DNA of 48,553 nucleotides from the IMG/VR virus record IMGVR_UViG_3300045988_108834, positions 1 through 48,553 of that record. One strand, given 5' to 3'. Made by a program: the position numbers and the translations under genes. Below the pieces are notes generated by a model. The model ran no database searches. It was not told the DNA's origin and worked only from the letters and a program-made list of their open reading frames with translations. Positions 1 to 48,553 of the stretch are shown in pieces; the first letter of the stretch is position 1; each line of letters opens with the position of its first letter. The DNA is from a virus.

Positions 1-1019
1 CCGCGAAGTACGGCCTGCCCTACTTCCAGAACTTCATCAACTCCGAGCTCGACCCGGGCATGATCCGCTCGATGTGCTGCCGCCTCCAGCTCGACCTGCG
101 CGAGCTCCTGAAGCGGGGCAACGGTTTGTTCGGCTCGGCCGAGCTCACGGGCTCCATAGGCGTCGTCACCGTGAACGCCGCAAGACTCGGATATCAGTAC
201 GCGGGCGACGAGACCGCCCTGTTCGAGCGCCTCGACCACCTCATGGACCTGGCTTCCTCGACCCTGGAGAAGAAGAGGATCAAGATCGCCGAGCTGATGG
301 AGCGAGGCCTCTTCCCTTACAGCAAGCGCTACTTGGGAGGACTTGGCAACCACTTCTCCACGATCGGCGTCAACGGCGTCAACGAAGCCATCCGCAACTT
401 CACCCACGACAAGGAAGACATCACCACCGAGTGGGGTCATGACTTCGCCAAGAAGCTCCTCGCACACATGAGAGAGCGCCTCGTCCAGTATCAGGAGAAG
501 ACCGGTAACCTTTACAACCTGGAAGCAACCCCCGCGGAGGGCACCACATACAGGTTTGCCAAGGAAGATCGTAAACGGTTCTCCAACATCATCCAGGCCG
601 GCACGGACAAGAACCCCTACTACACGAACTCTTCCCAGCTGCCTGTGTCGCACACGCAGGACGCATTCCAAGCTCTGGAAGAACAAGCAGACCTTCAATC
701 CATGTACACGGGCGGCACCGTCCTGCACCTGTACATGAACGAGAAGATCTCGTCCGGTGATGTGTGCGCTAAGTTGGTTAAGAGGGCACTCACTAACTTC
801 CACCTTCCGTACATCACGATTACCCCGACGTTCTCGATCTGCCCCAATCACGGCTACCTCGCCGGGGAGCATTTCGTGTGCGAGACGTGCGGTGAGGCAT
901 GCGAGGTGTGGACGCGCGTCATGGGTTACTTCAGGCCTGTGCAGTCGTTCAACATCGGTAAGAAGGGCGAGTACGCAGAGAGGACGTGCTTCACGGAGAA
1001 GGAGAGCGTGAAGGCTTGA
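1..1019 (+). CDS. nrdD: Anaerobic (class III) ribonucleoside-triphosphate reductase NrdD, C-terminal part; same gene as 47731..48553 joined across the circular junction
   Basis: Frame entering at nt 3 stays open to TGA 1017-1019. It carries a C-terminal Cys cluster (CPNHG..CETCGEAC) and the glycyl-radical motif RVMGY. nt 1-51 duplicate 48503-48553 in frame, giving one ORF of about 596 aa without an ATP-cone. Confidence 0.9.
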   Translation, partial: AKYGLPYFQNFINSELDPGMIRSMCCRLQLDLRELLKRGNGLFGSAELTGSIGVVTVNAARLGYQYAGDETALFERLDHLMDLASSTLEKKRIKIAELMERGLFPYSKRYLGGLGNHFSTIGVNGVNEAIRNFTHDKEDITTEWGHDFAKKLLAHMRERLVQYQEKTGNLYNLEATPAEGTTYRFAKEDRKRFSNIIQAGTDKNPYYTNSSQLPVSHTQDAFQALEEQADLQSMYTGGTVLHLYMNEKISSGDVCAKLVKRALTNFHLPYITITPTFSICPNHGYLAGEHFVCETCGEACEVWTRVMGYFRPVQSFNIGKKGEYAERTCFTEKESVKA

Positions 1020-1735
1020 CCGAGAGCAAGGACCTTCAGGTGGCCGGGCTGGTGCCACTGTCGTCAGTGGACTGGCCCGGCCGGCTCGTAGCCACCGTGT
1101 TCTGCCAGGGTTGTCCGCTCAGGTGCCCGTACTGCCAGAACTCAGCCATCCTCGACAATCGCACACCGGGCGTCATCGCCTGGTCGGAAATTGATGGTTT
1201 CCTCCAGCGGCGCGTCGGACTGCTCGACGGCGTCGTCTTCACAGGTGGAGAGGCACTGCGCCAGGAGGCTGTGATCCCTGCCGCCGAGACGGTCGCCGAG
1301 CTCGGTTTCGGCGTGGGTATTCACACGTCCGGCATGTTCCCGGACCGGCTGGAACGCATGATGCACGTCGTCGACTGGGTCGGCCTCGACGTGAAAGCCC
1401 GTCCGGAAGACTATAAGAATGCCGTAGGCGTGCGGGGCGACAAGGTGTGGCATACCCTCGACCTCGTGCTGGAGTCAGGCGTCGACTACGAGGTACGCAC
1501 AACCGTTTACCCCGAGTCACTCATCGACCACCACTTCGAGGACCTCGTCTCCCAGCTGAAGCTTGCCGGTGTGCGCAACTTCGCCTTTCAGGAGGCCCGC
1601 ACAGAAGGCACCCCGGTGGCGTTCCAGCTGATGGCGGCATCATGGGATAGGAAGCGTTGGGAGAAACGCCGGCGTGAGTTGGTTGAATGCGTACAGGCCG
1701 CCGGCTTCGACCGCTATATTCTCAGGCTCGCATAA
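1016..1735 (+). CDS. nrdG: Class III RNR activating enzyme NrdG (radical SAM)
   Basis: Has the CxxxCxxC motif (CQGCPLRCPYCQN) and an N-terminal PLSSVDWPG segment typical of these activases. TTG 1016 overlaps the nrdD stop (TTGA) behind GGAGAAGGAG. The ORF track offers GTG 986 as an alternative start. Confidence 0.85.
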   Translation: MTESKDLQVAGLVPLSSVDWPGRLVATVFCQGCPLRCPYCQNSAILDNRTPGVIAWSEIDGFLQRRVGLLDGVVFTGGEALRQEAVIPAAETVAELGFGVGIHTSGMFPDRLERMMHVVDWVGLDVKARPEDYKNAVGVRGDKVWHTLDLVLESGVDYEVRTTVYPESLIDHHFEDLVSQLKLAGVRNFAFQEARTEGTPVAFQLMAASWDRKRWEKRRRELVECVQAAGFDRYILRLA

Positions 1736-1760
1736 GTGATGGACGACACACACAGGGGTG

Positions 1761-1789
1761 TTGACGGGGTTGGCTCCTTTCGCTACCAT
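1761..1789 (+). promoter_or_regulatory. Sigma-70/SigA-like promoter
   Basis: TTGACG (1761-1766), a 17-bp spacer, then TACCAT (1784-1789). It lies about 30 nt upstream of ATG 1821. Confidence 0.5.
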
Positions 1790-1820
1790 GGAGACATGGA
1801 GAAAGAAAGGAGCCAACCTC

Positions 1821-2261
1821 ATGACACAGACGAACACTCTCAACGAGACACAGCTCATCCTATGCGTCCTATTCATCGGCGCCATTGCACACCTCGTCGC
1901 CTACCAGGTGTGGGCGACAAGAGGCGACCGAGGAATTGAGAACTACGACACGCGCATCAGGCCCTTCATGTGGACGGTCTGGGCCTGGCCATTCCATTAC
2001 GGGGTGTTTGCCTGTCTGCTGATCGACTACCTGTGGGGCAACAAAGCGAAGGAAAGGAGATACTATGAATATCTGGGTCGTTATTATGCTTCTGGCATGG
2101 GCGGTGGCTATAGCGCTGCTGGACTGGCAGCTCCGCAAATCGGAGAAGAAGCTGAACCGTGCGATACAAGAGGCGAGGAGCATTACTATTACCACCCGGC
2201 CTCCCGGTCATTCGTCGACGGCGGGTATTGGGGCTACGCACAGCAGTACCACGGACTCTGA
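1821..2261 (+). CDS. Hypothetical membrane protein (2 predicted TM helices, Tyr/Gly-rich tail)
   Basis: ATG 1821 follows GAAAGAAAGGAG. GC3 is high from 1821 to about 2060. Hydrophobic stretches LILCVLFIGAIAHLVAY and WTVWAWPFHYGVFACLLI are present. Confidence 0.6.
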   Translation: MTQTNTLNETQLILCVLFIGAIAHLVAYQVWATRGDRGIENYDTRIRPFMWTVWAWPFHYGVFACLLIDYLWGNKAKERRYYEYLGRYYASGMGGGYSAAGLAAPQIGEEAEPCDTRGEEHYYYHPASRSFVDGGYWGYAQQYHGL

Positions 2262-2283: not shown

Positions 2284-2744
2284 CTACACTGCTGGCTATC
2301 GACCCTTGCGGGGTGGGCGGGACGACTGGAATCGTCCTCGTCGGATATGAGAACGATTCTCCTGTACGGCTCCTCAACTCTTGGAACCCCGGCACCGATG
2401 AGACATACGAGTGGTTCTACAAGCGAATGTTCGACCGCATGGTCCACCCTGACGTTGTGGTGTGCGAGAAGTACGTCAACCGTAACATCCCGGGAGCCGA
2501 CATCAACCCAGTTCGCGTTGAGGGCGCTGTCCACGTCTTCGGCCGATTCCTCGGGAAGAAGATCCAGTGGCGCACACCGCAACAGCGGTTGTTCGTCCGT
2601 GACGAGAACCTCCGGCGCCTCGGTCTCCTATTCGAGAAGGTCGAGGATCATCACCACGACCGCCGGGAGGCCGCACGGCACGCCATAGCCTATCTGGTCG
2701 AGCGATCACACCACAAACCCACCTATGAGAGAGGATGGAAATGA
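2280..2744 (+). CDS. RuvC-like Holliday junction resolvase
   Basis: N-terminal LLAIDPCGVGGTTG matches the RNase H-fold (A)IDPG..TG motif. An acidic/His C-terminal motif (HDRREAARHAIAY) is present. The size, 154 aa, fits. Confidence 0.65.
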   Translation: MTTLLAIDPCGVGGTTGIVLVGYENDSPVRLLNSWNPGTDETYEWFYKRMFDRMVHPDVVVCEKYVNRNIPGADINPVRVEGAVHVFGRFLGKKIQWRTPQQRLFVRDENLRRLGLLFEKVEDHHHDRREAARHAIAYLVERSHHKPTYERGWK

Positions 2745-3211
2745 AGATAGGGTCGCTTTTCACAGGTATTGGTGGGTTGGAGCTCGGTGTGTTCAACACA
2801 GTGACATCCATTGTCCCGTATGACAACAATATCGAGTGGATAGCAGAGACTGACGGGAATGCACTGAAGATACTCGAACATTCAACCATGTTCCACGGGG
2901 TGCCCAATCTCGGAGATGTAGAGAAAATCGATTGGAGCACGGTTCCAGACGTAGACTGCGTCACCGGAGGGAGCCCCTGTCAGGACTTCTCCCACCCCGG
3001 GACCCGTAAGGGACTGGAAGGCGAAAAGAGTTCCCTGCTCTACACGTCCATCCTTCTACGACCTCAAACATTGGAACGAAGACGAAGTGAGGGCTTCCTA
3101 CGGGGCAGCCATCGAGCGGTGGGAGCAGACACTCGGTCGCGGGGCCCCTCTGCTGGCGAAGCCTTTTACCACGGGCTCCTGCAATCGACAAGAGAAAGGA
3201 CCAATAGATGA
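2741..3211 (+). pseudogene. Truncated/decayed C5-cytosine DNA methyltransferase (motifs I and IV only)
   Basis: SLFTGIGGLELG is motif I and GGSPCQDFS is motif IV with the catalytic Cys, followed by GTRKGLEGEKSSLLY. Similarity then stops: no ENV, QRR or GN(A/G)V motifs are present and the ORF is only about 156 aa. A different frame from about 3050 reads ..ASYGAAIERWEQTLGRGAP.., which resembles the distal part of actinophage Dcm proteins. Confidence 0.6.
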
Positions 3212-3498
3212 TCAAGAAATGGAACACTGCACGGTGGATCAGGAAATACTGCTACGACAACGAGGCGCTGCACGTCGAAGACTGCTTCGAGCTGGCTGTG
3301 CGCCTAGGAAAGGCCGGCATCGGCCCGGTCTTCGAGTGGGATGAGGACTACCCGTTCTCACCACACCCGTGGAATGGCCAAGGCAACGGCTCGCACACGT
3401 TCTTCGACGTGTTATTCAGCATTATCGGCCCGAGCTGGTTGTACACGCCGTACACTGAACTTTACTGGTGGTGGAGACGATATAGGGACGGTGAGTAG
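3208..3498 (+). CDS. Hypothetical Trp-rich protein
   Basis: ATG follows AGAGAAAGGA. It is the last rightward ORF before the convergent terminator. Confidence 0.6.
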   Translation: MIKKWNTARWIRKYCYDNEALHVEDCFELAVRLGKAGIGPVFEWDEDYPFSPHPWNGQGNGSHTFFDVLFSIIGPSWLYTPYTELYWWWRRYRDGE

Positions 3499-3530: not shown

Positions 3531-3549
3531 TATGTTCCTTGGCGGTGCG

Positions 3550-30150: not shown

Positions 30151-30159
30151 TTCCACGAT

Positions 30160-32355: not shown

Positions 32356-32387
32356 GTAGGCACAGTCGAACGAAAGGAGAGAAAAAC

Positions 32388-32951: not shown

Positions 32952-32956
32952 AGAGC

Positions 32957-33469: not shown

Positions 33470-33482
33470 AAGGAGGCATGAC

Positions 33483-34189: not shown

Positions 34190-34210
34190 ACTGAAAGGAT
34201 ACGAAACAAG

Positions 34211-34837: not shown

Positions 34838-34858
34838 CGGGTAGTGATGTATTTCACA

Positions 34859-34898
34859 GGGCGGGGGCTTGACGGCTCCCGCCCTTTCCGTGTAGGCT
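34859..34898 (+). promoter_or_regulatory. Terminator hairpin with embedded promoter
   Basis: An 11-bp stem (34859-34869 with 34874-34884, including G-U pairs) is followed by TTT. TTGACG (34869-34874) at the hairpin tip, 18 bp, then TAGGCT (34893-34898) form the promoter. Confidence 0.55.
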
Positions 34899-34933
34899 GG
34901 ACGCACAGCAGTCAAGAGAAAGGACATCGTACT

Positions 34934-36089: not shown

Positions 36090-36621
36090 TAAAGACATTA
36101 AAAAACTGGCGAAGCGTACGGGACTGGTGGACCCGCTCCGTGATGATTGCCTTCAACCGGCTAGTTACGACGTGCACCTAGGCCCGTACTTCCTCAACAC
36201 GAAGACAGGTGAGCGGCATGTGGCTTGGGGCGCACGGAGCGAGTTCGTTCTCCCGCCCGGCGAATTGTGGCTTGGCGCGACCTTGGAGAAGTTCGAGCTT
36301 CCAGCGAATATCGCCGCCCAGATAGAGGGCCGGTCGAGCTGGGGCCGCCTTGGGCTTATGACGCACATCACCGCCGGCTTCATCGACCCGGGGTTCGAGG
36401 GGATGATCACCCTGGAGCTATACAACGTCAATTCCCACCCGTTGATTCTTCCGACGGTTTTCGACCTGTTGTTGGATTCGACCGGTGTGGAGCCGATCGC
36501 ACAGGTGTCGTTCATGAAACTGTCGTCGAAGGCTAGGGAACCGTACAACACAAAAGGGCACTACCGTAACCCGATCGGTCCCCAGTTGTCTCGTCTCAAG
36601 GGGCGTGTGAAGAAACAGTAA
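36079..36621 (+). CDS. dcd: dCTP deaminase family protein (Dcd / possibly bifunctional Dcd-Dut)
   Basis: MLSDKDI..., QPASYDVHLG and GFIDPGFEGMITLEL are characteristic Dcd motifs. The SD is GGAAAGGAAGGAG. Confidence 0.85.
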   Translation: MLSDKDIKKLAKRTGLVDPLRDDCLQPASYDVHLGPYFLNTKTGERHVAWGARSEFVLPPGELWLGATLEKFELPANIAAQIEGRSSWGRLGLMTHITAGFIDPGFEGMITLELYNVNSHPLILPTVFDLLLDSTGVEPIAQVSFMKLSSKAREPYNTKGHYRNPIGPQLSRLKGRVKKQ

Positions 36622-36908
36622 TGGATATAGCCGACATCTGGGGGGGCGAAGAATGGGTCAAGCAGGCGCGCTGCAAGAAGAGCGACATCGGAATGGACCT
36701 GTTCTTCGCCCCCCGCGAGGGGGCCGACGTTGAGGACGACCCCTACTACCTGCGGGCCAAATGGGTGTGTTCGATTTGCCCCGTGCGACTCGAATGCAGG
36801 GACTATGCGGACCGCGTGGAGAAAGGACAGAAGAGGCTGTTCGGCGTGATAGGCGGGGAGGATTCGTTCGAGCGCCGGGCCAGGAGAGAAGAGGAGGGTA
36901 AGCTGTGA
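36621..36908 (+). CDS. whiB: WhiB-family transcription factor
   Basis: Four Cys residues in the WhiB arrangement (C..-..CSICPVRLEC) and a C-terminal Gly/Arg-rich tail; 95 aa. Confidence 0.85.
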   Translation: MDIADIWGGEEWVKQARCKKSDIGMDLFFAPREGADVEDDPYYLRAKWVCSICPVRLECRDYADRVEKGQKRLFGVIGGEDSFERRARREEEGKL

Positions 36909-37465
36909 GGCAGCTGCTGTACGGGAAGAAGGGACCGCTTGAGGGCTGGTTCGCCGTTAACTCGGACGACACGTTGGAGTATGTGCCGACGTCGAGTGAG
37001 GCGATGCACAACTCATACCGGGAGACGGTGGAAGACGCTAAGGGTAAACCGTTCCGGGCTATCAGCATCGGGTACGCGTCGGAGCGACAGATCTTCTACA
37101 CGTGCAACGGGATTCGACTGATTCTAGTAAAACAGGACGAACCTCCGTTCTACCCTGGCAAGGCGCCGTCTGGGTACTACTATGACGCGTCTAGGCACAC
37201 TGTGGATCGCTTCTATGACCCGCCGTTCCACGTTAAAGGAGAGGAGTGCCCGGCCGACTCGGTGACGGGCATTCTGAAGTCTCAGGGGTACGTGTGGTGC
37301 CGTCGTAAATACGATGGCACCGAGTTCCTCCTGACGAAGGACCCTGAGGGCAAGGCGGATGTGGACAAGTATTACATCAAGGCATTCTCGATCGGTCTGA
37401 ACATGGACATTCTGGTTCGTTCGATCGATATCTCGTGCGAGAAATTCGAGGTTGTTCGATCATGA
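36905..37465 (+). CDS. Hypothetical protein (186 aa)
   Basis: GTG overlaps the whiB stop (GTGA). Confidence 0.6.
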   Translation: MRQLLYGKKGPLEGWFAVNSDDTLEYVPTSSEAMHNSYRETVEDAKGKPFRAISIGYASERQIFYTCNGIRLILVKQDEPPFYPGKAPSGYYYDASRHTVDRFYDPPFHVKGEECPADSVTGILKSQGYVWCRRKYDGTEFLLTKDPEGKADVDKYYIKAFSIGLNMDILVRSIDISCEKFEVVRS

Positions 37466-37475
37466 TCGAACAACC
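37450..37475. repeat. Perfect 26-bp palindrome GGTTGTTCGATCATGATCGAACAACC
   Basis: I verified that it is self-complementary over all 26 nt. It contains the TGA of 36905..37465 and the ATG of the helicase gene. Confidence 0.95.
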
Positions 37476-38940
37476 ACTCGAACTCACACCCGAGCAGGAG
37501 GGGAAGGTGGAGGCCATCGTCGCACAGCGGGATGGCTTCCGGGCCGCTTTGGACGTGTCGGATACAGGGACGGGCAAGACTCTGTGTGCGGTGGAGGTTG
37601 CGAAGCGGTTGGGTCCGACTACGACGCTGATCGTGGGGCCGGCGAAGCCGCAGATCGTAGCTGCGTGGAAGAAGACGTTCGCCAGGCAGGGCGTCGATTT
37701 GCCGTTCAAAAGGATCGATTCTAAGCACCTCGACTACTTCGACGACTTAAGCCGACATGTCCCCGGCGTCTACTACGTGGGACGGGAGTACCTCGGCCTG
37801 TCGGATTTGAACGGGAAGAATGCTGAGAAGGGCAAGAAAAACCTTCTTCCCTGGATTAAGGCCAAGCCGGATTTCGTCGTCTATGACGAGGTGCAGTCGG
37901 CGTCTAACCGTAAATCCGGACGGGCTAAGGCGATGTGGAGCCTTCGGAACGCCGGTTTTAAGCTGGCCATGTCGGCGACGCCGCAGGGCAACCGCTTCGA
38001 GGGCCTGTGGTCTATCTGCCGCTGGTTGTGGTGGGACGTGGAGGACCCTGAGCGTGTCCCGCTGTCCAGCGACAAGAGGGACTGGCTGTACGTGGAGGGA
38101 TCGTTCCATCGCTGGAAGGCGCGGTGGTGCATTGTTCAGAACAGTTGGATCCACGACAGGTATGGCAGGTTGCAGGAGATTGAGACGATCGTCTCGGAGA
38201 AACAGCCGGGTGCTTTCCTCCGGTCTTTGCCGTGCGTTGTGGGTTTGCCGGCTGACCGGAAGCCCGTGGACACGCGTATCGTCGAATGCGAGCTAACGCA
38301 TAAGCAGCGCGATATATATGACAAACTGCAATATGAGCTGATCTCCGAGGTGGAGGGCGGTTTGCTGGTGGCGTCTCTTCCGATTGTGAAGCTTGTGCGC
38401 CTGCGTCAGGTGGCGTTGGGCGAGCCGTGCATGGTGTACGACCCAGATATCGACATGGACAGGGTGACGTTCGACTCGGACTGCCGCTCCAGGAAACTCG
38501 ACATGTTGAACGCGCTGATCGAGAAGCATCACCCTCGGGACAAGGTGTTGGTTTTCACGTCGAGCCAACGGTTCGCGAATGCTGTTGCACACAGGGTGTG
38601 TGCGAAGACAGCCCTGTACACGGGCGCGCAGTCGGCTAAGGCACGTAGTGAGGCGTTTGCAGGGTTCACAGCGGGGGATGTGCAGGTCTTGCTGTGCACT
38701 GTCGGCGCCGCGGCTGAGGGCCTGGACGGGCTGCAACGGGTGTGTCACGTGGAGGTGTGGCTGGACGAGGACCTGAATGGGATGCTGTGTGAGCAGGCGA
38801 AGGGCAGGTTGAACCGCATGGGCCAGCCCGCTGATCGGATCATCCGCTATTACTTCCAGGCCCGTGACACGATGGACGACGGAACGTTCCAGCGTCTCGC
38901 ACAGCAAGCGGAGAACAATCGTTCAGTTTTGAACAAGTGA
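37462..38940 (+). CDS. SNF2/DEAD-like superfamily 2 helicase
   Basis: Motif I is DTGTGKT and motif II is DEVQ. C-terminal helicase motifs (..VLVFTSS.., ..GLDGLQ..) are present. Confidence 0.8.
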   Translation: MIEQPLELTPEQEGKVEAIVAQRDGFRAALDVSDTGTGKTLCAVEVAKRLGPTTTLIVGPAKPQIVAAWKKTFARQGVDLPFKRIDSKHLDYFDDLSRHVPGVYYVGREYLGLSDLNGKNAEKGKKNLLPWIKAKPDFVVYDEVQSASNRKSGRAKAMWSLRNAGFKLAMSATPQGNRFEGLWSICRWLWWDVEDPERVPLSSDKRDWLYVEGSFHRWKARWCIVQNSWIHDRYGRLQEIETIVSEKQPGAFLRSLPCVVGLPADRKPVDTRIVECELTHKQRDIYDKLQYELISEVEGGLLVASLPIVKLVRLRQVALGEPCMVYDPDIDMDRVTFDSDCRSRKLDMLNALIEKHHPRDKVLVFTSSQRFANAVAHRVCAKTALYTGAQSAKARSEAFAGFTAGDVQVLLCTVGAAAEGLDGLQRVCHVEVWLDEDLNGMLCEQAKGRLNRMGQPADRIIRYYFQARDTMDDGTFQRLAQQAENNRSVLNK

Positions 38941-39255: not shown

Positions 39256-39624
39256 ATGGACGACTATATCGAGGAGCAGTTGAAGGATAACTTCATATTG
39301 TTCGATAACTTGGACAAGAGGTATGCTTTCATCCCCGCACTTAAGAAGTGGTTGGACGTTAACGGTGCAGAATATTGCTTGGGGTTAGCAGATCTTCGTA
39401 ACCTTATGGACAACGATCTTCTATACTTCGCACCTGTCCCGTTCATCCAACACGTGTGGGGCCAGCGCGACACGCAGCGTGCCGCATTGGAACCGCACAC
39501 CACGCTAAAATATAAGGATGGGCCGATCATCTTGCACAACACCGGCGACACACCTGCTGTCATCGAGTGCAAGCACATTATCAATTTCGCGATCAACAAA
39601 GGCTGGGAGCTTCAACTGGTATGA
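39256..39624 (+). CDS. Hypothetical protein (122 aa)
   Basis: ATG follows GAGAAAGGAGGAATGAA. Confidence 0.65.
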   Translation: MDDYIEEQLKDNFILFDNLDKRYAFIPALKKWLDVNGAEYCLGLADLRNLMDNDLLYFAPVPFIQHVWGQRDTQRAALEPHTTLKYKDGPIILHNTGDTPAVIECKHIINFAINKGWELQLV

Positions 39625-40358
39625 GGAATGACGAACTGCTGTCACTGTTCACGCCGCAGACGCGGCGCGACAAGCAGATCCGGGTGGGTGCATCAAACCT
39701 TTCCAACCCGTGTGCGCTGTGCCTGGCCGAGGACATCCTTCCGGGTATCAAGGACAAGAGCGGAGTGGCGCTCAAGCCTCGCGAGATGCGGGAGTCGAAC
39801 TTCGTTATGGGGGCGCGGATTGGAACGGACATCCACCGCGGCTTGGAGTATTGGGCTAAGCGGCTCTTTCCCAAGTGGGAACTTGAACAACGTTTCGAGC
39901 TCGGGCTCTACGAGAACTACGGGCTGATCAGGTCTACGGCCGACGCTTATGATCCGGAGGACGGGACGATCGTCGACTACAAGACGACCACTCGCTCCAA
40001 GCTGAAGGCCCTCAGCGCGGTGTTCGCGATGCACGGCGACGTTCCGGACGTGAGCGGGGACAGCGCAAAGGCGAAGTACATCGCCTACGTCGCACAGACA
40101 CACCTCTACGCTCTCGGGAAAGAGCGCCGCGATGGCGAAGGAACTGTGCATAAGATCAAGGTCGTGTTCATTCCGAGGGACGCTTCTCAGGTGGCGGACG
40201 TGGAGATCTTCACGCTAGATTACAACCGGGATAAAGCGGAACGGGTGTGGGATCGCGGGCAGCACATCATCGATGCACTGTGCGACGGCTTCACCGACTT
40301 CCCCTCCTATCCGGGCTGCTACCGCTGCAACGTGCTGGCTGTCAAGACGAACGATTGA
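39621..40358 (+). CDS. PD-(D/E)XK exonuclease, Cas4/RecB-like with a Cys cluster
   Basis: ATGA overlap at the start. The motifs are D..D..IVDYKTT and QTHLYAL (QxxxY). An N-terminal CALC plus a C-terminal CYRC fit an Fe-S cluster. Confidence 0.75.
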   Translation: MRNDELLSLFTPQTRRDKQIRVGASNLSNPCALCLAEDILPGIKDKSGVALKPREMRESNFVMGARIGTDIHRGLEYWAKRLFPKWELEQRFELGLYENYGLIRSTADAYDPEDGTIVDYKTTTRSKLKALSAVFAMHGDVPDVSGDSAKAKYIAYVAQTHLYALGKERRDGEGTVHKIKVVFIPRDASQVADVEIFTLDYNRDKAERVWDRGQHIIDALCDGFTDFPSYPGCYRCNVLAVKTND

Positions 40359-40376: not shown

Positions 40377-40715
40377 GTGAAAGAACACGACGACATCATC
40401 GAGTATGGCTACATATCGGGACTCATCGAAAGCCTCGAAGCACGGAAGAAGGAACTCGCCGCAGCCATCAAACAACGCCTGCAGGTGGGCGAATCTAGCG
40501 TAGCCGGCCCGTACATCGTGACGAGAAAGGAGGTGCACCGTTTCGATATATCGAAAGCTGAAAAGGCTTTACCTGGAGATACGCTTCGACGTTGCTATGT
40601 TCAAAAGCTGGATCCGAAGAGAGTGAAGTCTTTGGCGACAGCTGAACAGTACTATCAGTGTCTTAAAGGCACGGATCAACTTCATATTCGACAGGAGAAA
40701 GGAGAAGACGAATGA
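40377..40715 (+). CDS. Hypothetical protein (112 aa)
   Basis: GTG follows GAGAAAGGCGGAGG. Confidence 0.55.
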   Translation: MKEHDDIIEYGYISGLIESLEARKKELAAAIKQRLQVGESSVAGPYIVTRKEVHRFDISKAEKALPGDTLRRCYVQKLDPKRVKSLATAEQYYQCLKGTDQLHIRQEKGEDE

Positions 40716-41479
40716 CCGACTTCGACATCGAATCATTCATTATCAAACCCGACGAGCTGAGCAAACCCGAGCAGATCCTCGTCTACTCCGACTATGGACA
40801 GGGGAAGACGACGTTCGCTGCTTCGGCCGCCAAGTTCGCACCCACCTCTCCCGTGTTGTACCTCGACCTCGAAGGCAGTACTACGGGCGTCACCCGCGAT
40901 GTTCCGCCGGAGAACATTGACATCATCCGACCCAAGAACATGCCGATACCGAAAGGCATGTCCAAAGAGGAAGGCTGGATCCACAACACCGACCAGATCC
41001 TCGTGGCCTTCCTCACAGGGAAGATGTCGCGTGAATACAAGACGATTGTCATCGATCCGCTCAACGTCTACAACGACTGGTGCGTAGACCACTTCGAGCG
41101 GAAAGAGATGTCCCAGCCGAACCCCAACAATTTCGCGATCTGGACGGAGGCTGCGAAGAAAACCACCGGATCGAACGGCATCTTCCCGCTTCTGAAAGAC
41201 GCCGGGGTGCTGTCCATCCTCGTCGTCCACCAGAAGACCGACGACAAGGGCGTGGCCGACTTCGCCTGGCGGGGTTCCGGTTCACGCGCCAAGGTTGGAC
41301 AGACGCCCGATGTAGTGATACATTTGTCCTTGGACACCGATCGGAACACCGGGGAGTCGCACACGGAGGCGCAGATGTTCGCCTCCAGGACGATAGGGGC
41401 GAAGAACCGCTTCAACCTCCCCTCTTTCGTGGAGGATCTGACCATCGAGAAACTCTGGACGCTTTGCGACAACCACTGA
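40712..41479 (+). CDS. RecA-like AAA ATPase (Sak4 / AAA_24-type recombination protein)
   Basis: Walker A is YSDYGQGKTT and Walker B-like is KTIVIDPL. The gene sits between the nuclease and an SSB-like gene. Confidence 0.7.
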   Translation: MTDFDIESFIIKPDELSKPEQILVYSDYGQGKTTFAASAAKFAPTSPVLYLDLEGSTTGVTRDVPPENIDIIRPKNMPIPKGMSKEEGWIHNTDQILVAFLTGKMSREYKTIVIDPLNVYNDWCVDHFERKEMSQPNPNNFAIWTEAAKKTTGSNGIFPLLKDAGVLSILVVHQKTDDKGVADFAWRGSGSRAKVGQTPDVVIHLSLDTDRNTGESHTEAQMFASRTIGAKNRFNLPSFVEDLTIEKLWTLCDNH

Positions 41480-41491: not shown

Positions 41492-42091
41492 ATGGCACGC
41501 AAATCATCTTATAAGGCATTCAAACTCGACGACAACGAACTCAAATCAGCTCGTGGGGCCGACGGGCACTTCGCAGGACGCGGAGGAGCCATTAAAGTTC
41601 CGGCTCCGGGGGTCTATCGGGCTTTCATCTGCGACGTGGAGAGAGGAGAATACAAGTCGGCGGCTAACGCGGGACTACCCCGTCTCGTCGTTGACCTGAA
41701 GATCCTCGAAGGACCCACCGACGAGTACGACGGGGTCGTCGTCAAAGACTTCAACGTCCCGCTCCAGCCGCATTGGAAGAACGGAAAGCTCAACTACAGC
41801 TTCCCGAACTTCTGGGAGGCCGTCGGCGCCTACGATCCCCGCGAGGGCTTCCTTATCCCCGAGGATGAGACGGAGCTGGTCGACCCCGACCAGACGGTTC
41901 TCATCAAGATCGGGAACCGCCACAACAACAAGGGGTACGTCAATGCGACGGTGGACTCCTACTACGTGGACGACGGCAAGCGGGAGCTCGAACAGCTCGG
42001 TGAACCCCTGAAACCCAAGGTTGTGAAGGACGAGCCCACTGCTACTGTCCAGTCGACACAGGACACGACGAGAACGTTCACCATCGGTTGA
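41492..42091 (+). CDS. DUF669-like protein (putative ssDNA-binding partner of the Sak4-like ATPase)
   Basis: The pattern ..PAPGVYRAFICDVE..S..G.PRLVVDLKILEG.. and the gene's position support the call. Confidence 0.5.
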   Translation: MARKSSYKAFKLDDNELKSARGADGHFAGRGGAIKVPAPGVYRAFICDVERGEYKSAANAGLPRLVVDLKILEGPTDEYDGVVVKDFNVPLQPHWKNGKLNYSFPNFWEAVGAYDPREGFLIPEDETELVDPDQTVLIKIGNRHNNKGYVNATVDSYYVDDGKRELEQLGEPLKPKVVKDEPTATVQSTQDTTRTFTIG

Positions 42092-42167: not shown

Positions 42168-44570
42168 ATGGAAGCGATTGATTTTCTAGACACGATATAC
42201 AAGGACATCAAGGGGTACGTCAACATTGTGACGATGGACCCCCTTGAGGAGAAAGAGACTGTCAAGAGCCGGTTCATCGAGTGGCCGGAGAAGAGGGACT
42301 TCGCACATCGATACGTCTCGATGCGAGAGGACGAAAACACTTACTGCTCGGTGGGGGTGTTCACCGGAAAGAACCGTTCGGGCGACGACAAGGGTGCGCT
42401 GTGCGGCGTTGTGTGGGCAGAGGCGGACACCTGCCCCCCGAGTGAGTTCGCCGTCGAGCCGTCTCTGGTTGTGCGCACATCGAGGAACCGTACGCATTGC
42501 TGGTGGGTTCTTGACAAGCCCTACCCGCTGGCCGAGTGCTCCGAGGTGGCACGTTCCATCTATCAAAAGCATCGCGACAAGGGCTGCGACAGCGGTTGGC
42601 AAGCGTCCAAACTGCTTCGGATTCCCGGTTCGGTCAACACCAAGTACGGCGCTGACTACCCCGTCAAGATAGAAAAGAATACCGGCGCGGTCTACACGTT
42701 GGAAGAAATCAAGGACGTCTATCCGGTTGTGCGCCTTGAAGAGGCTAAAAAAGAAGGCGAGGCGCCCCCGGAGTGCGACGACGAGCAGCTGTGCGTCATC
42801 GAGGATAAGCTCACGTCCCCTTCCTTGAAGTCGATGTATCTCGACGAGATAGAGGACGGTCATCAGAGCTGGTCTCAGACCGCTAAGAGATTCCAGATGG
42901 AACTGTTCCGCGCCGGTCTCTCGGACCACGAGGTGTACCAGTTGATGCTCCGCGCACACTGCAACAAATACAACCCCGTCTATGCTGGGCGTAAAACCAA
43001 GGAAGGCCACTCGATCCCCAAGCGTGACAACTGGGAGCTGTGCACGTGGAGAGAGGTCGAGAAATTCAGTAAGGAATATAATGACAGTTTCACACATCTC
43101 GATGAGAACGGGATCGCTTTAGGGGACGAAAACTTCTCCAACGCCATTCGGGAGTACCAGACGGGAGAGATTCAGCTTCTTACGGATGAAGAAGTGAAGT
43201 TCGTCGAGGGTAAGGATAACCCGACGTTCCTTAAAGATTACATAGATTACGGCCGAACGGTGACGGATACGGCAGACGCCTACCATGCAGCCTTGGGTCT
43301 AGTGACGTTGGCTACGACGGTCGGCGCTTTCGGGGCCCTCGACACGACGGGGGACGACAATCAGGGTCTTCGCTTCTGGCCGCTTCTTCTCGGGCCGTCT
43401 GGCACTGCACACAAAACCACAGCAGTGAACGGCGCACAAGCCGTCATTGACCTGTGCGGGTCGCTAGTGGGACGAAGCAACAGCATCAAGGTGGCGAGTG
43501 ACTCCACTATTCAAGCTATGAAACGAGACATTGCACCTTTCCACAACACGCCCACATATATGTCGCTTGATGAGGTGCAGGATAAATTCCGTGACATCAT
43601 GGATGACCATGGGTCCTGGAAGGGGTTCGATGCTGGCTTGTGTAAGCTGTACAGCGGTGAAGTCGAGCTGACACGGCGTGTTACGTCAGTGAACATCGAC
43701 AGCGCTAACGCGCATCTTAATGTTATCCTCACGGGTATATATGATGAGTCGATTGATGTTCTCGAAATGCGTAACTTTAAAAACGGGTTCCTCACTCGCT
43801 TCACATGGGTGACGTATCTTGAAGACGACGTGAAGAATAAGGACACTGACAACACCCCGAAGATAGCGGCGATGTTCAACAGCCGCCGAAAGTTCGGGAA
43901 CAGTAAAGACCGAGACAAAAAGGCAATGGCACTCGCACACAGGCTGGCGGAGCGTATCACGCAATTGTCCCGTACTTGTTACGGATCCGACGACGTGCCT
44001 GAGGTTGAGAGGAAACTACAGGAACGAGAGGTCGATGCGAACCGCATACTCCTCGACGTAGACGATGAAGCGCTCGATCGATACAACACGTGGTGTATGA
44101 ACCTTCAGCGCTTCGATATCGTGGAAGACAAGTCCCCCATCTTCGAGTCGGCTTTCCGGCGGCTATGCATCACAGTCCCGCAGGTGGCCGGACTATTCAG
44201 CCTCATGGACCGAGAAGACGGAGTCATCACCAAGACGCACATGTTGAACGCCATTTACTACTCCAACCACTGGGTCAGGTGTCTTCTTAAGGCCCTCAAC
44301 GATGTGACGGAGAACGGTTACGTCAAGCAGCAGGACGCTGTCATGTCGTTCATTCGTTCGCGTTGTGATAAAGCGAATCACGCTATCCTGTGCACGAAGG
44401 TCCGGGACAAGTTCCCCGAGCTGGACGAGTGGCAGTACAAGAACATCATCTCTTCGCTGCGTGGTCGAGGTCTCATTTCCGGCCCCGTAGAAATCGAATA
44501 CGTTCGAGGCAAAGGCAAGAATGCGAAGAAATCTAAGGGATGGTTCTACACGCTGGTGGTGGACGAATGA
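42168..44570 (+). CDS. Primase-polymerase (AEP) fused to a helicase/NTPase domain
   Basis: The AEP motifs are VVWAEADT (the hhhDhD type), SRNRTHCWWVL (the sxxxH type) and LRIPGSVNTKY. The central P-loop-like motif is LLGPSGTAHKTT. The product is 800 aa. Confidence 0.75.
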   Translation: MEAIDFLDTIYKDIKGYVNIVTMDPLEEKETVKSRFIEWPEKRDFAHRYVSMREDENTYCSVGVFTGKNRSGDDKGALCGVVWAEADTCPPSEFAVEPSLVVRTSRNRTHCWWVLDKPYPLAECSEVARSIYQKHRDKGCDSGWQASKLLRIPGSVNTKYGADYPVKIEKNTGAVYTLEEIKDVYPVVRLEEAKKEGEAPPECDDEQLCVIEDKLTSPSLKSMYLDEIEDGHQSWSQTAKRFQMELFRAGLSDHEVYQLMLRAHCNKYNPVYAGRKTKEGHSIPKRDNWELCTWREVEKFSKEYNDSFTHLDENGIALGDENFSNAIREYQTGEIQLLTDEEVKFVEGKDNPTFLKDYIDYGRTVTDTADAYHAALGLVTLATTVGAFGALDTTGDDNQGLRFWPLLLGPSGTAHKTTAVNGAQAVIDLCGSLVGRSNSIKVASDSTIQAMKRDIAPFHNTPTYMSLDEVQDKFRDIMDDHGSWKGFDAGLCKLYSGEVELTRRVTSVNIDSANAHLNVILTGIYDESIDVLEMRNFKNGFLTRFTWVTYLEDDVKNKDTDNTPKIAAMFNSRRKFGNSKDRDKKAMALAHRLAERITQLSRTCYGSDDVPEVERKLQEREVDANRILLDVDDEALDRYNTWCMNLQRFDIVEDKSPIFESAFRRLCITVPQVAGLFSLMDREDGVITKTHMLNAIYYSNHWVRCLLKALNDVTENGYVKQQDAVMSFIRSRCDKANHAILCTKVRDKFPELDEWQYKNIISSLRGRGLISGPVEIEYVRGKGKNAKKSKGWFYTLVVDE

Positions 44571-46654
44571 GGACTGTGCGATTCCATCTGGCGTCCGGCG
44601 ACGTCGAAGCGTTTAAAGAGCTGGCTGTGCGGGCCCGTAAAGAGCTCGGGCCTCTCACGTATGAACGGGTCGACGCAGAGGATAGTGCCGCTATCTTCGA
44701 CCTCGACCCGTGGGACGACTGCGGTATCGACATGGCTGTGCAGTACTTCGTGGGGGTTGTGCGACGCTACCTCCTCGATCACGGCGCCTGGTCTTCCCCG
44801 TTCGGCGGACCGATATCGCGGATTCTCTTCCTCGACATCGAATCCCACGGCGTCGAGAAGCGCTGGTCCATGACGCCGAGGGATTTCTTCCGTCTCGGCC
44901 AGTACGCGTGGGGCGAAGGCCCCGTCGTCTTGACTGAGGACTATGACGAGGTCATCGCCGCCATCCGAGAAGCCGACGGCGTCGTGGTGCACAACGGCCA
45001 CAATTTCGACCTATCGGTGTTGTTTGGTAAAGACAGCGACGAGCCGCTTCGAATGGCGATGGATCGTCGTATCATCGACACCATGGTTCTCGCCAATATC
45101 GCATACCCCGCCCCGTCCTTCTACGAGGACCGGGCGGGGCGCTCCGTCGCCACAGACCTCCGCCCTTCGAATGTGCGCAGATGGCTGTCCCTCGACAACC
45201 TCGCATACCAGATGGGTCTGGAAGGCAAAGTCATGGATCTGAAGGACCTCGCCAAGCAGTTCAACCCACCCGGCACTAAGGTCTCCGATCTCGACTTCGG
45301 ATTGATACCCATCGACGATCCGGTGTTCCGCGAATATTCCGAGCAGGATGTGGTCGTGCTCAGAGGAATTTTCAAGGAGCTTCTAATGCGTCACGAAGTA
45401 AACGAGTACGACTGGCGTGAACAGTTGAAGGCGGCTATCAACGCGCAGATGTCGAGGAACGGGTTCCTCATAGATGAAGACAAAGTCTACGACAGGTTAT
45501 ACGCTTTGGCTGACAGAAAGGAGAAGCTACTCGACTATCTGCACAAGTCAGTGGGTATGCCACTCGATTCGAAGCAGCCGTGGCGGACGAACGTTGGAAA
45601 GCAGTGCATCATCGACGCCCTGGCTGCGTTCGGCGTAGACGAGCACACGCATCCCGAGTGGCCGCGCACACCGACCGGAGCCCTGCAGCTGTCCGGCAGC
45701 GTCGTACAGGACCTCCTGAGGGGCCACGGAAGCCACGCTGAGGCCTTCGGAAAGGTCCTGGGTGAACTACTGGGCCAGCGATCCCTTGCGCAGCTCACAA
45801 TCGATTGTCTGCAGCCTGACGGCCGTGTGCACCCCGAGGTCGATGACCTGCAGCGCTCTGGTCGTTCTTCTACGACGAAGCCCGGTTTGACTGTGTGGAC
45901 GGCACGTGGCGACAACGCAGTGGAGAAGTCCTACTTCGTCCCCGACCCCGGATGCAAGCTCGTCTCGTTCGACTACTCGAATGCGGATGCGAGGATCGTT
46001 GCAGGTTACGCGCAGGACCCCGCATATATGGAGAATTTCAAACCCGGCGCCGACCCGCATGAGATCACAGGCCGCGCCGTCTGGGGCGACGAAGAGTACG
46101 AGGCGCACATGCCTGAAGGCTGGGAGACCGATCCTGAGGCGCGAAAGCACAACCCGTACCGCCAGAAAGCCAAGGCGCTCTCGCACGCCTGGAACTATGG
46201 AGGCGGGGCGAAGACGATCGCCAAGGCTTCTGGACAACCGTTAGACATAGCGGAACACTTCGTCAAACAGATGGCGAAAGCCTATCCGCGGGTCGTCGAA
46301 TGGCGTCAGGACTGTGCGGATCAGGGGGAGAACGGCTGGATCTACAACGCGTGGGGCAGGCGCATGAGCGTCAACGTCGAGCGGTCCTACACGCAGTCCT
46401 CGGCTCTCATGGGGCAGTCCGGGACGCGGGAGATCATGACCGACGCGCTTATCCGGATGCTGAAATGTGACATTCGCCTCATTCACTGGCTTCGCGCGCA
46501 AATCCACGACGAGCTGATTTTCTCCATCCCCGAATCGGAGCTAGACTGGGCAGTGCCGAAAATCGCGGAGCTGATGTCCACAACGTGGAACGGGGTGGAG
46601 TTCACAGCCGCACACGGGCAGCCGGCAGACGACTGGGAGCACGCCTCCCACTGA
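44567..46654 (+). CDS. polA: DNA polymerase I family (PolA) with a 3'-5' exonuclease domain
   Basis: Exo I is LFLDIESHG. Pol motif A is DYSNADARI, motif B is RQKAKALSHAWNYGGG and motif C is QIHDELIF. An ATGA overlap links it to the primase gene. Confidence 0.9.
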   Translation: MRTVRFHLASGDVEAFKELAVRARKELGPLTYERVDAEDSAAIFDLDPWDDCGIDMAVQYFVGVVRRYLLDHGAWSSPFGGPISRILFLDIESHGVEKRWSMTPRDFFRLGQYAWGEGPVVLTEDYDEVIAAIREADGVVVHNGHNFDLSVLFGKDSDEPLRMAMDRRIIDTMVLANIAYPAPSFYEDRAGRSVATDLRPSNVRRWLSLDNLAYQMGLEGKVMDLKDLAKQFNPPGTKVSDLDFGLIPIDDPVFREYSEQDVVVLRGIFKELLMRHEVNEYDWREQLKAAINAQMSRNGFLIDEDKVYDRLYALADRKEKLLDYLHKSVGMPLDSKQPWRTNVGKQCIIDALAAFGVDEHTHPEWPRTPTGALQLSGSVVQDLLRGHGSHAEAFGKVLGELLGQRSLAQLTIDCLQPDGRVHPEVDDLQRSGRSSTTKPGLTVWTARGDNAVEKSYFVPDPGCKLVSFDYSNADARIVAGYAQDPAYMENFKPGADPHEITGRAVWGDEEYEAHMPEGWETDPEARKHNPYRQKAKALSHAWNYGGGAKTIAKASGQPLDIAEHFVKQMAKAYPRVVEWRQDCADQGENGWIYNAWGRRMSVNVERSYTQSSALMGQSGTREIMTDALIRMLKCDIRLIHWLRAQIHDELIFSIPESELDWAVPKIAELMSTTWNGVEFTAAHGQPADDWEHASH

Positions 46655-46669
46655 TGAAAGGAGAAACGT

Positions 46670-46894
46670 ATGACGAAAGCGACGCTGTACACGAAACCAG
46701 GATGTGTGCAATGCAAGATGACGAAGAAAGACCTGACGAAGAAAGGCATACCGTTCGACGAGGTTGACATCACCGAAGACCACGACGCACTGTCCTTTGT
46801 GCTAGGACTCGGTTATAAGCAGGCGCCGGTTGTGGTGATCGGTCAGACGCACTGGAGCGGGTTCCGCCCTGACATGGTCAGGAAGTTCGTTTGA
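46670..46894 (+). CDS. nrdH: NrdH-like glutaredoxin
   Basis: 74 aa with the CVQC redox motif and a ..WSGFRPD.. C-terminus. Confidence 0.8.
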
Positions 46895-47700
46895 TGAACA
46901 CAATTGACAGACAGTATGAGGTTCTTCTCGCAGACGTTCTGAAGCACGGGGTGGAGAAGAAGGATCGCACAGGGGTGGGGACGCTGTCCGTCTTCGGGCG
47001 GCAGATTCGATACGACCTGAGTAACGGCTTCCCTCGTATAACGACGAAGTTCGTTCCGATGAAAGCGGTGAAGGGCGAACTTCTGTGGTTTCTATCAGGC
47101 GACACGAATATCAAGTGGTTGAAAGACCATGGTATCACTATCTGGGACGAGTGGGCCGATGCAGATGGCAACCTCGGGCCCGTGTACGGACACCAGTGGC
47201 GCTCCTGGCCTGCACCGGATGGAAAGGGCATCGACCAAATCTACGAGGTCGTTGAGAGCTTGAAGGCCGATCCGGACTCCCGCCGGCATATCGTGTCGGC
47301 ATGGAACGTCGGCGACTTGGACGCCATGGCTCTTGCACCGTGCCATGTTCTATTCCAGTTTTATGTAGCAGGCGGCAGGCTATCGTGTCAGCTGTATCAA
47401 CGTAGTGCGGACTTGTTCTTGGGTGTGCCTTTCAATATAGCGTCGTATTCCTTGTTGACGCACATGATCGCACAGCAAACAGGCTACGACGTGGGCGAGT
47501 TCATCTGGACTGGAGGAGACTGCCATATATACAAGAACCACGTAGTGGCTGTGCGAGAACAAATCACCCGCAACCCCTACCCGTTTCCCGAGCTCAGCCT
47601 CAAGAAGGCGCCATCGATATTCGACTATCAAATGAGTGATATATACGCATCGGCCGGGTACAAACACCATCCCGCCATCAAGGCCCCCGTGGCTGTATAA
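46891..47700 (+). CDS. thyA: Thymidylate synthase ThyA
   Basis: By eye it is collinear with E. coli ThyA: [59 protein letters not shown] and KAPVA. Asn is retained in FNIASY, indicating dUMP specificity. Confidence 0.95.
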
Positions 47701-47730
47701 TCGAAGACCCATCGTAGAAAGGACGATATT

Positions 47731-48553
47731 TTGACTGTTAACATCGACCCCATCTCCACAGTGGAGGAGTACGTGGAGCAGGCGGATTGGCGCGTCAACG
47801 CGAACGCGAACCAGGGCTACTCCGTCGGCGGCCTCATTCTCAACGCCGCCGGCAAGACGATCGCGAACTATTGGCTGTCGAAGGTGTACAGCGAAGAAGA
47901 AGGAGCCGCACACAGAAACGGCGACTACCATATCCACGACCTCGACATGCTCGCGGGCTATTGTGCGGGCTGGTCGCTGCGCCGCCTGCTCGAAGAGGGA
48001 TTCAACGGCATCGCGGGGGCCATCGCCTCCGATCCGCCGCGTCACTTCAGGTCGGCCTGCGGCCAGATCGTCAACTTCCTCGGCACGCTGCAGAACGAGT
48101 GGGCGGGGGCCCAGGCCTTCTCGTCCTTCGACACGTACATGGCGCCGTTCATCCGGCTCGACGGGCTGGACTATGCGGAGGTCAAGCAATCAATGCAAGA
48201 GCTCATTTTCAATCTCAACGTTCCAAGCCGTTGGGGCAGCCAATGCCCCTTCACGAACCTGACGTTCGACTGGACGTGCCCGGCCGACGTGGCCGACGAC
48301 CACCCCTACATCGGCGAGGAGGTCTGCGACTTCACGTACGGGGACCTCCAGGCCGAGATGGACACGATCAACCGCGCCTACATCGAGGTCATGATGGAAG
48401 GCGACGCCGACGGCCGCGTCTTCACCTTCCCTATCCCGACCTACAACATGACGAAGGACTTCGACTGGGAGTCGGACAACGCCCGCGCCCTGTTCGATAT
48501 GACCGCGAAGTACGGCCTGCCCTACTTCCAGAACTTCATCAACTCCGAGCTCG
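47731..48553 (+). CDS. nrdD: NrdD, N-terminal part (continues at nt 52 after the junction)
   Basis: TTG 47731 follows GAAAGGAC. The product reads ..NANQGYSVGGLILN..HRNGDYHIHDLD.. and the frame is open to the window end. This ORF is absent from the ORF track. Confidence 0.85.
   Translation, partial: MTVNIDPISTVEEYVEQADWRVNANANQGYSVGGLILNAAGKTIANYWLSKVYSEEEGAAHRNGDYHIHDLDMLAGYCAGWSLRRLLEEGFNGIAGAIASDPPRHFRSACGQIVNFLGTLQNEWAGAQAFSSFDTYMAPFIRLDGLDYAEVKQSMQELIFNLNVPSRWGSQCPFTNLTFDWTCPADVADDHPYIGEEVCDFTYGDLQAEMDTINRAYIEVMMEGDADGRVFTFPIPTYNMTKDFDWESDNARALFDMTAKYGLPYFQNFINSEL
48503..48553. repeat. 51-nt exact duplicate of nt 1-51 (circular assembly overlap)
   Basis: The two strings are identical and the duplication lies in frame inside nrdD. 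Confidence 0.95.

Follow-up and report, generated by a model that had tools for sequence, protein, structure and literature searches.

The window analysed here is the whole of a 48,553-nucleotide virus sequence (IMG/VR record IMGVR_UViG_3300045988_108834, positions 1 to 48,553), in which one asymmetric hexamer, TGTGCG, and its complement, CGCACA, are strongly over-represented. Judging from sequence comparison, a predicted fold and the analogy of plasmid replication, TGTGCG is probably where the phage's own RepB'-type primase-helicase (42168–44570) initiates its primers. We lean, a little less firmly, towards a wider reading, in which phages with this type of primase would carry a genome-wide priming code: a TGTGC core with a clade-specific flank, co-evolving with the helix bundle of the enzyme and raised 2.5–5x by selection at synonymous sites.

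An exact count gives 174 copies, 93 as TGTGCG (plus strand) and 81 as CGCACA (minus strand), or one per ~279 bp and, on each strand, one per ~520–600 nt. A previous sequence-only reading of this DNA had tallied about 170 in both orientations, suspected an undercount and expected about 30 from base composition; the exact figures (174 against 30.7) agree, and the coordinates that it gave for copies are all correct, including four palindromic fusions, TGTGCGCACA. The expectation was 35.1 under an order-1 Markov model (z 23.5, with ATATAT next at z 12.9), 34.8 ± 6.4 with a maximum of 53 in dinucleotide-preserving shuffles, 54.5 at order 3 and 117 at maximal order (z 5.3), and TGTGCG ranked first among hexamers under every composition, Markov or shuffle model run. 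Codon-aware nulls relied on 61 modelled genes that take up 88% of the window and within which 148 copies were observed, against 38.3 ± 5.1 by synonymous-codon shuffling (3.9x, z ~21) and 21.7 by codon permutation. Under the codon-aware null the remaining outlier hexamers were all overlapping shifts of TGTGCG. The sequence-only reading had proposed that its claim would fall if Markov or codon-shuffled nulls absorbed the excess, or if many hexamers of equal composition were enriched alike; we found neither, with a 3.9x excess and no other anomalous hexamer, so the over-representation stands.

TGTGCG behaves as a strict hexamer. The exact word stands at 4.96x and all 18 of its one-mismatch variants at 0.4–1.9x, and k-mer counts over the whole genome showed no signal added by 7-mer or 8-mer extensions. 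Flanks of the 174 copies carry <0.1 bit per position, favouring C or G at −1 (72%) and C or A at +7, and a search around the copies found no longer consensus or hairpin, much as the earlier description of a weak C/G preference at −1 and C at +7 had it; the preference at −1 is compatible with a stable first dinucleotide of a primer. Also as described before, copies occupy all codon phases (9/18/45 for sense TGTGCG, 13/21/42 for sense CGCACA) and intergenic DNA; the 26 non-coding copies lie at a higher density (4.6 per kb) than those in coding DNA (3.4 per kb). Spacing is Poisson-like (index of dispersion 0.89; Kolmogorov–Smirnov test against an exponential, p = 0.82). The position of the word is tied neither to promoters nor to gene starts, its orientation is independent of transcription, and counts by transcription arm (plus/minus 5/8, 46/43 and 42/30) reveal no strand bias, in keeping with the absence of a strand switch between arms noted earlier. 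A plus bias that had been reported at 30.8–36 kb is real (19 plus, 7 minus) but weak (uncorrected p = 0.03). The palindromic fusions TGTGCGCACA number four against 1.6 expected, an excess that is not significant, and were dropped as a separate element on that ground.

Copies of TGTGCG are under purifying constraint and are maintained by selection. A nucleotide search of the cultured-phage collection with the genome gave no match; many metagenomic relatives came from human-associated samples, with DNA 85–92% identical and TerL ~98% identical in protein, and TGTGCG was 4.3–6.5x enriched in all of them. Every member of the close clade (~100 loci, retrieved by TerL and by the primase in largely overlapping sets of contigs) was 4–6.5x enriched, and the replication arm of the clade showed the same enrichment (4–5x). 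Conservation was analysed in ~68 relatives at 85–92% nucleotide identity. Wobble positions within copies reached a conservation of 0.882, whereas the same codons elsewhere gave 0.657 (Wilcoxon p = 2e-13); retention was 0.778 for intact copies and 0.531 for control hexamers matched for phase; synonymous sites inside TGTGCG are ~3 times less variable than matched sites. Non-coding copies outside the putative origin region described below were, on average, conserved no more than the background. A more distant relative, L241 (NrdD 87% identical), has the word at 3.9x and as its first-ranked hexamer, and L186, a mosaic with a divergent helicase half, is enriched like the rest of the clade. In L186 (IMGVR_UViG_3300045988_134100) TerL is 98% identical, the primase N-terminus 74% and the whole primase-helicase ~50%, a pattern that suggests recombination within the primase-helicase gene.

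The enrichment is a property of the phage lineage, not of the host, as follows from the ratios in bacterial loci and in phages sharing a host. Among 80 bacterial loci the median TGTGCG ratio was 0.58, and an Actinobaculum chromosome (GC content 0.60; NrdD 81% identical) gave 0.61x. Two Actinomycetaceae loci (L076 and L242) reach ~2.0x with a hexamer rank of only 44–61, and in L242, the one checked, a maximal-order model showed that its pentamers account fully for the excess. Amigo and Molivia (Amigovirus), two distant relatives in culture, have GTGTGC as top hexamer, with no strand polarity of this word, and in three unrelated phages of the same Arthrobacter strain GTGTGC stands at 0.20–0.53x (rank ~1800–2000). 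A few unrelated bacterial loci from a ThyA scan (L107, L080 and L086) place CGCACA in the top ten under a codon-aware null (16 against 7.1 in L107); these are small excesses, with 12–20 kb per locus.

Across these lineages the enrichment co-occurs with the RepB'-type primase family, with two exceptions, Satis and Pan2. All proteins of the genome were compared with eleven phages in a tblastn matrix (E ≤ 1e-4), and the N-terminal domain of the primase was the only segment common to all enriched genomes, including the Gordonia phage GTE2, and missing from BarnCat. GTE2 shares the N-terminal primase domain and little else, and is enriched; BarnCat shares TerL, PolA (35% identity), the SNF2 helicase and, of the primase gene, only the helicase half (residues 334–748), and is not. 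Neither BarnCat nor Bennie, both with a Prim-Pol (PF09250), shows enrichment. Order-1 statistics under-called the cousins (Jojan60 ranked 55th), which a synonymous-shuffle null corrected. Under the latter, the top hexamer (observed/expected) was CTGTGC in Jojan60 (80/25), Yappy (86/32) and L205 (37/13), GTGTGC in Amigo (66/17), GTGTGG in GTE2 (74/32) and TGTGCT in L228 (40/15), and with this codon-aware null a TGTG word was the top hexamer in six of the eight cultured or representative primase carriers. Each clade has a word of its own: TGTGCG here, GTGTGC in Amigovirus, CTGTGC in Jojan60, Yappy and L205, TGTGCT in L222–L229 and GTGTGG in GTE2. Because the clades have different flanking bases, the words are not simply inherited composition.

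The same pattern held in 28 metagenomic carriers, in which a TGTG word, almost always with the TGTGC core, ranked first in 10, in the top three in 17 and in the top ten in 20 (median rank 3); in 68 bacterial loci the corresponding numbers were 1, 1 and 8 (median 67.5), and four phages without a RepB'-type primase had their best TGTG word at rank 27–149. Words containing TGTG make up only 2.3% of hexamers. The TGTGC core tracks the phage primase family across widely differing hosts and across GC contents from 43% to 61%. Some distant carriers show a further, unusual enrichment of restriction-type palindromes: in four IMG/VR contigs (L223, L224, L227 and L229; GC 0.53–0.56) the 6-bp palindromes GATATC (30/3), CTCGAG (66/14) and GGTACC (32/6) are strongly over-represented at order 1. 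Another, L196, has CCACCA at 68/9.

The protein encoded at 42168–44570 (plus strand, 800 amino acids) matches DNA primase in PHROG (E 9e-73), and its C-terminal part (43161–44570, plus strand) is a D5/DUF3987-type helicase half (Pfam DUF3987, E 5.4e-8, residues 477–696). The proposed reader of TGTGCG is the N-terminal part (42168–43160, plus strand, residues ~1–331), with a predicted RepB'-type catalytic domain belonging to the AEP (archaeo-eukaryotic primase) superfamily followed by a helix-bundle domain. In our alignments (A1–A3) the AEP motifs appear as D87 and R151-x-P153-G...N-x-K159, with D87, R151 and P153 invariant and G143 and K159 nearly so, and the segment WS..ELFR.G....EV.......NKY is conserved in the helix-bundle region. 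A direct sequence search of the PDB with the primase found no match, and a single-sequence homolog search with its N-terminus returned only four, so a profile search was needed; in this, 22 of 28 homologs carried the RepB_primase family (PF16793), combined with a RepA-like helicase. An AlphaFold2 model of residues 1–350 (predicted local distance difference test score, pLDDT, 79.6) shows an alpha/beta domain and then a helix bundle; pLDDT is mostly >85 over residues 1–185 and lower in the helices at 205–263 and 289–331. The top Foldseek match of this model was 3h20, full-length RepB' of plasmid RSF1010 (E 2e-9), aligned over 313 columns and both domains; the second PDB match was 3h25_A, the RepB' catalytic domain with initiator DNA (template modelling score 0.64, E 5.7e-7), and a further one was 6zp9_A, the AEP domain of the S-2L PrimPol. 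Among the cousins, PF16793 was matched by GTE2 (7.7e-7) and by Jojan60 (2.5e-4, below the curated cut-off), and the Prim-Pol family PF09250 by BarnCat (3.6e-15) and Bennie (6.4e-28) and not by the primase of this phage.

On the evidence of profile and fold, the enzyme is predicted to combine a RepB'-type AEP primase with a D5-like helicase in one protein and not to be a Prim-Pol. One of the options raised by the sequence-only reading, initiation sites for a phage prim-pol, therefore survives as regards primase initiation and fails as regards the enzyme, which does not belong to PF09250. For the same reason the GTG precedent of ORF904 and NrS-1 was dropped as the main basis of our interpretation.

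RepB' starts an 11–12-nt DNA primer at thymine 32, within the GTG at nt 31–33 of the RSF1010 site ssiA, and needs both its catalytic and its helix-bundle domain to prime (PMC8567376). We verified the 40-nt ssiA sequence, CCTTTCCCCCTACCCGAAGGGTGGGGGCGCGTGTGCAGCC, which is 100% identical in at least 149 IncQ plasmid records; nt 31–36 accordingly read GTGTGC, exactly the Amigovirus word, and nt 32–36 read TGTGC, the core of TGTGCG, with the start T32 as its first T. Comparison of eight ssi sites, taken from four IncQ-family plasmids, shows an invariant GTGTG, with variation in the hairpin sequence, the 1–3-nt spacer and the next base. At the level of sequence, the word is identical to the RepB' start context. 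The helix bundle of RepB' is required for dinucleotide formation.

We infer from this that the primase reads TGTGCG and starts there. Its helix-bundle and catalytic domains would read the word on the unwound single-stranded template, and the primer would begin opposite the first T and run over the G/C-rich bases 5' of the word; the GTGCG 3' of the start would be read and not copied, in parallel with ssiA, where the start is T32 of G-T32-GTGC. A primase specific for a hexamer would meet only ~17 sites per strand by chance, for which reason selection would have multiplied the word, raising its density about five-fold on both strands, in coding and non-coding DNA alike. Such a density would offer frequent opportunities for lagging-strand priming and re-priming, and the family A DNA polymerase encoded just downstream (44576–46654, plus strand; Pfam DNA_pol_A, E 9.6e-26) is the likely extender of the primers. 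Longer copies of the word in inverted arrangement, GGGGTGTGCGCC, are probably the two leading-strand starts of an origin; they lie on either side of an AT-rich region with iterons.

This region, at 29.3–30.1 kb, is a putative origin, proposed from its sequence elements, which lie in a divergent intergenic region. Iteron-like direct repeats, (T)ACG..GGTAACTTAC, occur 3–4 times at 29258–29341, and a 28-nt unit, CAAAGAGGACCGTTTTCGAATTTCGGGG, occurs twice at 29375–29444. Two bottom-strand TGTGCG sites follow at 29663–29689 (copies at 29665 and 29679, reading ...TGGTGTGCGCC and ...GGGCTGTGCGCC on the minus strand), and on the top strand, within 30019–30084, lie a 19-nt repeat, GCC(A/C)CTTTGGGGTGTGCGC, present twice (30019–30078, with TGTGCG at 30031 and at 30072), and one more copy at 30079. 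Between these convergent clusters, at ~29830–29900, is an AT-rich stretch that may be an unwinding element. The bottom- and top-strand sites (GGGGTGTGCGCC) pair as 14-nt inverted repeats, 93% complementary; the pairing comes from one direct repeat (D7) and three inverted ones (I6, I7 and I10), and the iterons are D1–D3.

Only these origin-proximal copies have an extended conserved context (14–19 nt), in which a G-run precedes GTGTGC, the arrangement of the RSF1010 ssi consensus. All of 20 relatives keep the copies at 29665 and 29679 intact (100%), although the flanks are only 71–77% identical, and the copy at 30072 is 100% intact in 19, with a flank identity of 71%. The strongest change-point in the orientation of TGTGCG falls between 29679 and 30031, with 1 plus and 9 minus copies to its left and 24 plus and 8 minus to its right (Fisher p = 4e-4, post hoc), the polarity expected for lagging-strand templates; an orientation switch at 29.7–30.0 kb is suggestive only. 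The intergenic region further contains, at 30088–30212, a GC-rich palindrome, GAGGGCGCGCGGGCGCGCG, and a 22-nt repeat, GATTTGACTTGAAATCGATCCG, present twice; like the iteron-like repeats, they may be origin or operator elements.

Several points weigh against initiation by the phage primase. The documented specificity of RepB' concerns the 5' hexanucleotide and hairpin of ssiA, not the GTGTG start context, and the copies spread through the phage genome are without a hairpin or upstream consensus: the ssi-type 5' hexanucleotide and upstream hairpin were not found at the 174 copies. The link to RepB' rests on the profile search and the predicted fold, and the phage protein itself gave no match to Pfam PF16793 at E ≤ 1. 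In Satis, a Streptomyces phage with a full-length homolog, and in Pan2, with a partial one, the best TGTG word ranks only 85–90. The carriers are related phages, in which another co-inherited factor is possible, and the host-genome tests used 22-kb samples of related lineages that stand in for the host. As to geometry, genome-wide strand polarity is absent (93/81), same-strand gaps are random-like and not evened out (maximum 3.0–3.1 kb), and an unbiased permutation scan for an orientation switch at 29.8 kb was not significant (p 0.2–0.75).

Three of the rival explanations that we weighed had been raised by the sequence-only reading, whose four options were unranked. A Chi-like signal, read by host RecBCD, AddAB or AdnAB and protecting phage DNA ends or stimulating recombination, would account for a short, asymmetric word over-represented in both orientations and would suit a genome whose ends fall anywhere; the two Actinomycetaceae loci at ~2x (L076 and L242) also lend it something, yet the word ranks only 44–61 in them and, in L242, the one checked, is accounted for by pentamers. 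We consider it highly unlikely: the cousins' word is depleted (0.2–0.5x) in unrelated phages of the same host, the nearest host-lineage chromosome (Actinobaculum, standing in for the host) has TGTGCG at 0.61x, the TGTGC core tracks the phage primase family over GC contents of 43% to 61%, one copy per 280 bp is far denser than any known Chi, and the word is non-polar (93 plus, 81 minus, no arm bias). Nor did we find positive support for the proposal of a target for methylation, hypermodification or nicking by a phage- or host-encoded enzyme, to which we attach a very low probability. Methyltransferases of Type IIS, Type III and BREX-like systems typically act on exact asymmetric hexamers, and the genome has a large nucleotide-metabolism set and eight unannotated early proteins; but its sole methyltransferase is a truncated C5 fragment that ends after motif IV and is absent from L241, no modification gene is common to the enriched lineages, restriction-type targets are normally avoided rather than enriched, and modification alone gives no reason for synonymous-site selection towards more sites.

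It is improbable that the word is instead a site of some other conserved phage protein, be it a replisome accessory, a protein resembling single-stranded DNA-binding protein (SSB), a nucleoid or packaging protein or a WhiB-dependent regulator. In favour of this, several replication and structural genes are shared among the carriers, which are related phages; against it, the N-terminal primase domain alone is common to the enriched genomes and missing from BarnCat (tblastn, E ≤ 1e-4), and the copies are neither linked in position to promoters or gene starts nor oriented with respect to transcription. For the nucleoid or packaging protein named by the sequence-only reading, no positive support emerged. 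A neutral bias of mutation or repair, through the error spectrum of polymerase or primase or through biased gene conversion, fits the depletion of the C-to-T sources CGTGCG and TGCGCG (0.5–0.7x), the enrichment of G-to-A or C-to-T products of TGTGCG (1.3–1.9x) and the background-level average conservation of non-coding copies outside the origin, but not the strong conservation of wobble sites within copies or the perfectly conserved islands formed by certain origin-proximal copies, and we judge it unlikely too. An origin by very-short-patch-type (VSP-type) repair or deamination was rejected on the ground that the variants with A, C or G at position 1 are all depleted to the same degree, which does not point to a single VSP-type mismatch-repair pathway. 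Each of these rivals is disfavoured by the evidence from lineage, domain dissociation and conservation, and initiation by the phage's own RepB'-type primase-helicase remains the reading that we prefer.

The genome is complete and circular, cut inside nrdD (47.7–48.55 kb and 1–1019, spanning the cut point); a 51-nt terminal direct repeat (1–51 and 48503–48553) is assembler overlap, and the true length is 48,502 bp. A siphovirus structural arm is present, and the nucleotide metabolism set comprises NrdD/NrdG, ThyA, DHFR, dCTP deaminase, a Tmk-like kinase and glutaredoxin. Upstream of the primase-helicase, all on the plus strand, lie genes for an SNF2/DEAD-type helicase (37462–38940), a PD-(D/E)XK exonuclease (39621–40358), a Sak4-like AAA_24 ATPase (40712–41479) and a DUF669 SSB-like protein (41492–42091); proteins of this module also occur in unenriched relatives and so are not the common denominator. 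The methyltransferase remnant (2735–3211, plus strand; next open reading frame, ORF, 3208–3498) is a 158-residue C5 cytosine methyltransferase fragment that covers positions 1–93 of a 324-position profile and retains motifs I and IV (GGSPCQDFS), the frame being degenerate afterwards. This slot is variable, with two small ORFs and no methyltransferase in L241. Eight or nine early proteins of 170–217 residues, encoded at 30269–36089 and 36905–37465, have no Pfam or PHROG match, and a local excess of TGTGCG (18 copies in 30–32 kb) falls among them. The second most over-represented hexamer, ATATAT/TATATA (28 against 3.6 at order 1), has 22 start positions (among them 21393, 23187, 29862–29875, 38312, 43736, 47525 and 47639), only about one third of which are non-coding, and shows the same excess in relatives. 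The word AGAAAGGA occurs 20 times genome-wide, against ~1 expected, as the Shine–Dalgarno context upstream of genes.

Among the loci that offer clues to the host, listed as the WhiB gene (36621–36908), 46894–47700 and nrdD, WhiB points to an actinobacterial host. NrdD is 80–81% identical to proteins of Actinobaculum (81%), Ancrocorticia and Arcanobacterium, and ThyA, in a scan of genome contigs, is 76% identical to that of an Arcanobacterium metagenome-assembled genome; because of these identities, the host is probably an oral or gut member of the Actinomycetaceae. That metagenome-assembled genome was rejected as the host itself, since ThyA is only 76% identical and its GC content is 49%. No integrase was found among the ORFs scanned, and the host clues taken together suggest a virulent, uncultured phage of human-associated Actinomycetaceae. 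The closest cultured relative is Stenotrophomonas virus Jojan60 (ON045087.1, L070; TerL 53% identical), recorded as a Stenotrophomonas phage, yet with a WhiB-like regulator and an actinophage replication module, which would make its host record either an odd host assignment or a host jump.

If TGTGCG is indeed read by the primase, it would be the first primase start site to act as a genome-architecture word in the manner of Chi or of the FtsK-orienting polar sequences (KOPS), and the template specificity of a replication enzyme would constrain every gene of the virus strongly and measurably. RepB', known only as a two-site plasmid leading-strand primase, would gain a repetitive lagging-strand role. 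Primase specificity could be read out from genome statistics by purely computational means and predicted for the primase-helicases of actinophages and metagenomes, a large family that is uncharacterised; the word would also point to the bases that the helix bundle should read and suggest a concrete origin at 29.3–30.1 kb. In practice TGTGCG can serve as a lineage marker for binning these phages and as a caution for recoding and synthetic-phage design. A literature search for TGTGCG as a known signal returned nothing relevant, and in the literature searched we came across no account of primase start sites being enriched throughout a phage genome, which is not proof of novelty.

Of the known systems, RSF1010 with RepB', ssiA and ssiB comes closest, sharing the predicted fold of the reader domain and the primer start context G-T-GTG-C, and its oriV has the same geometry of convergent inverted sites by iterons and an AT-rich stretch. 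It differs in that RepB' is a stand-alone protein, used only twice per plasmid and in leading-strand mode, at 40-nt sites in which a 5' hexanucleotide and a hairpin are required, whereas the phage primase is fused to a D5-like helicase and its word is a bare hexamer in 174 copies. Primases with trinucleotide sites, such as T7 gp4 (5'-GTC-3'), DnaG (CTG) and pRN1 ORF904 and NrS-1 (5'-GTG-3') (PMC8718748), likewise initiate at specific template sites that are partly read but not copied, and in those of the AEP superfamily a helix-bundle domain reads the site, which has a GTG core. Their sites, however, are 3–4 nt long and frequent by chance, so that no genome-wide enrichment is needed, and the Prim-Pols (PF09250) form another AEP branch, whose carriers BarnCat and Bennie are unenriched. 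As a short, exact word, over-represented in coding and non-coding DNA and selected for a DNA-processing protein, TGTGCG resembles Chi, KOPS, DNA uptake sequences and the stoperators of Cluster A mycobacteriophages. At 9–13 nt, the uptake sequences and stoperators are longer, and they are far fewer; Chi and KOPS are host-encoded and strand-polar. TGTGCG is non-polar, about ten times denser and lineage-specific to a phage primase family.

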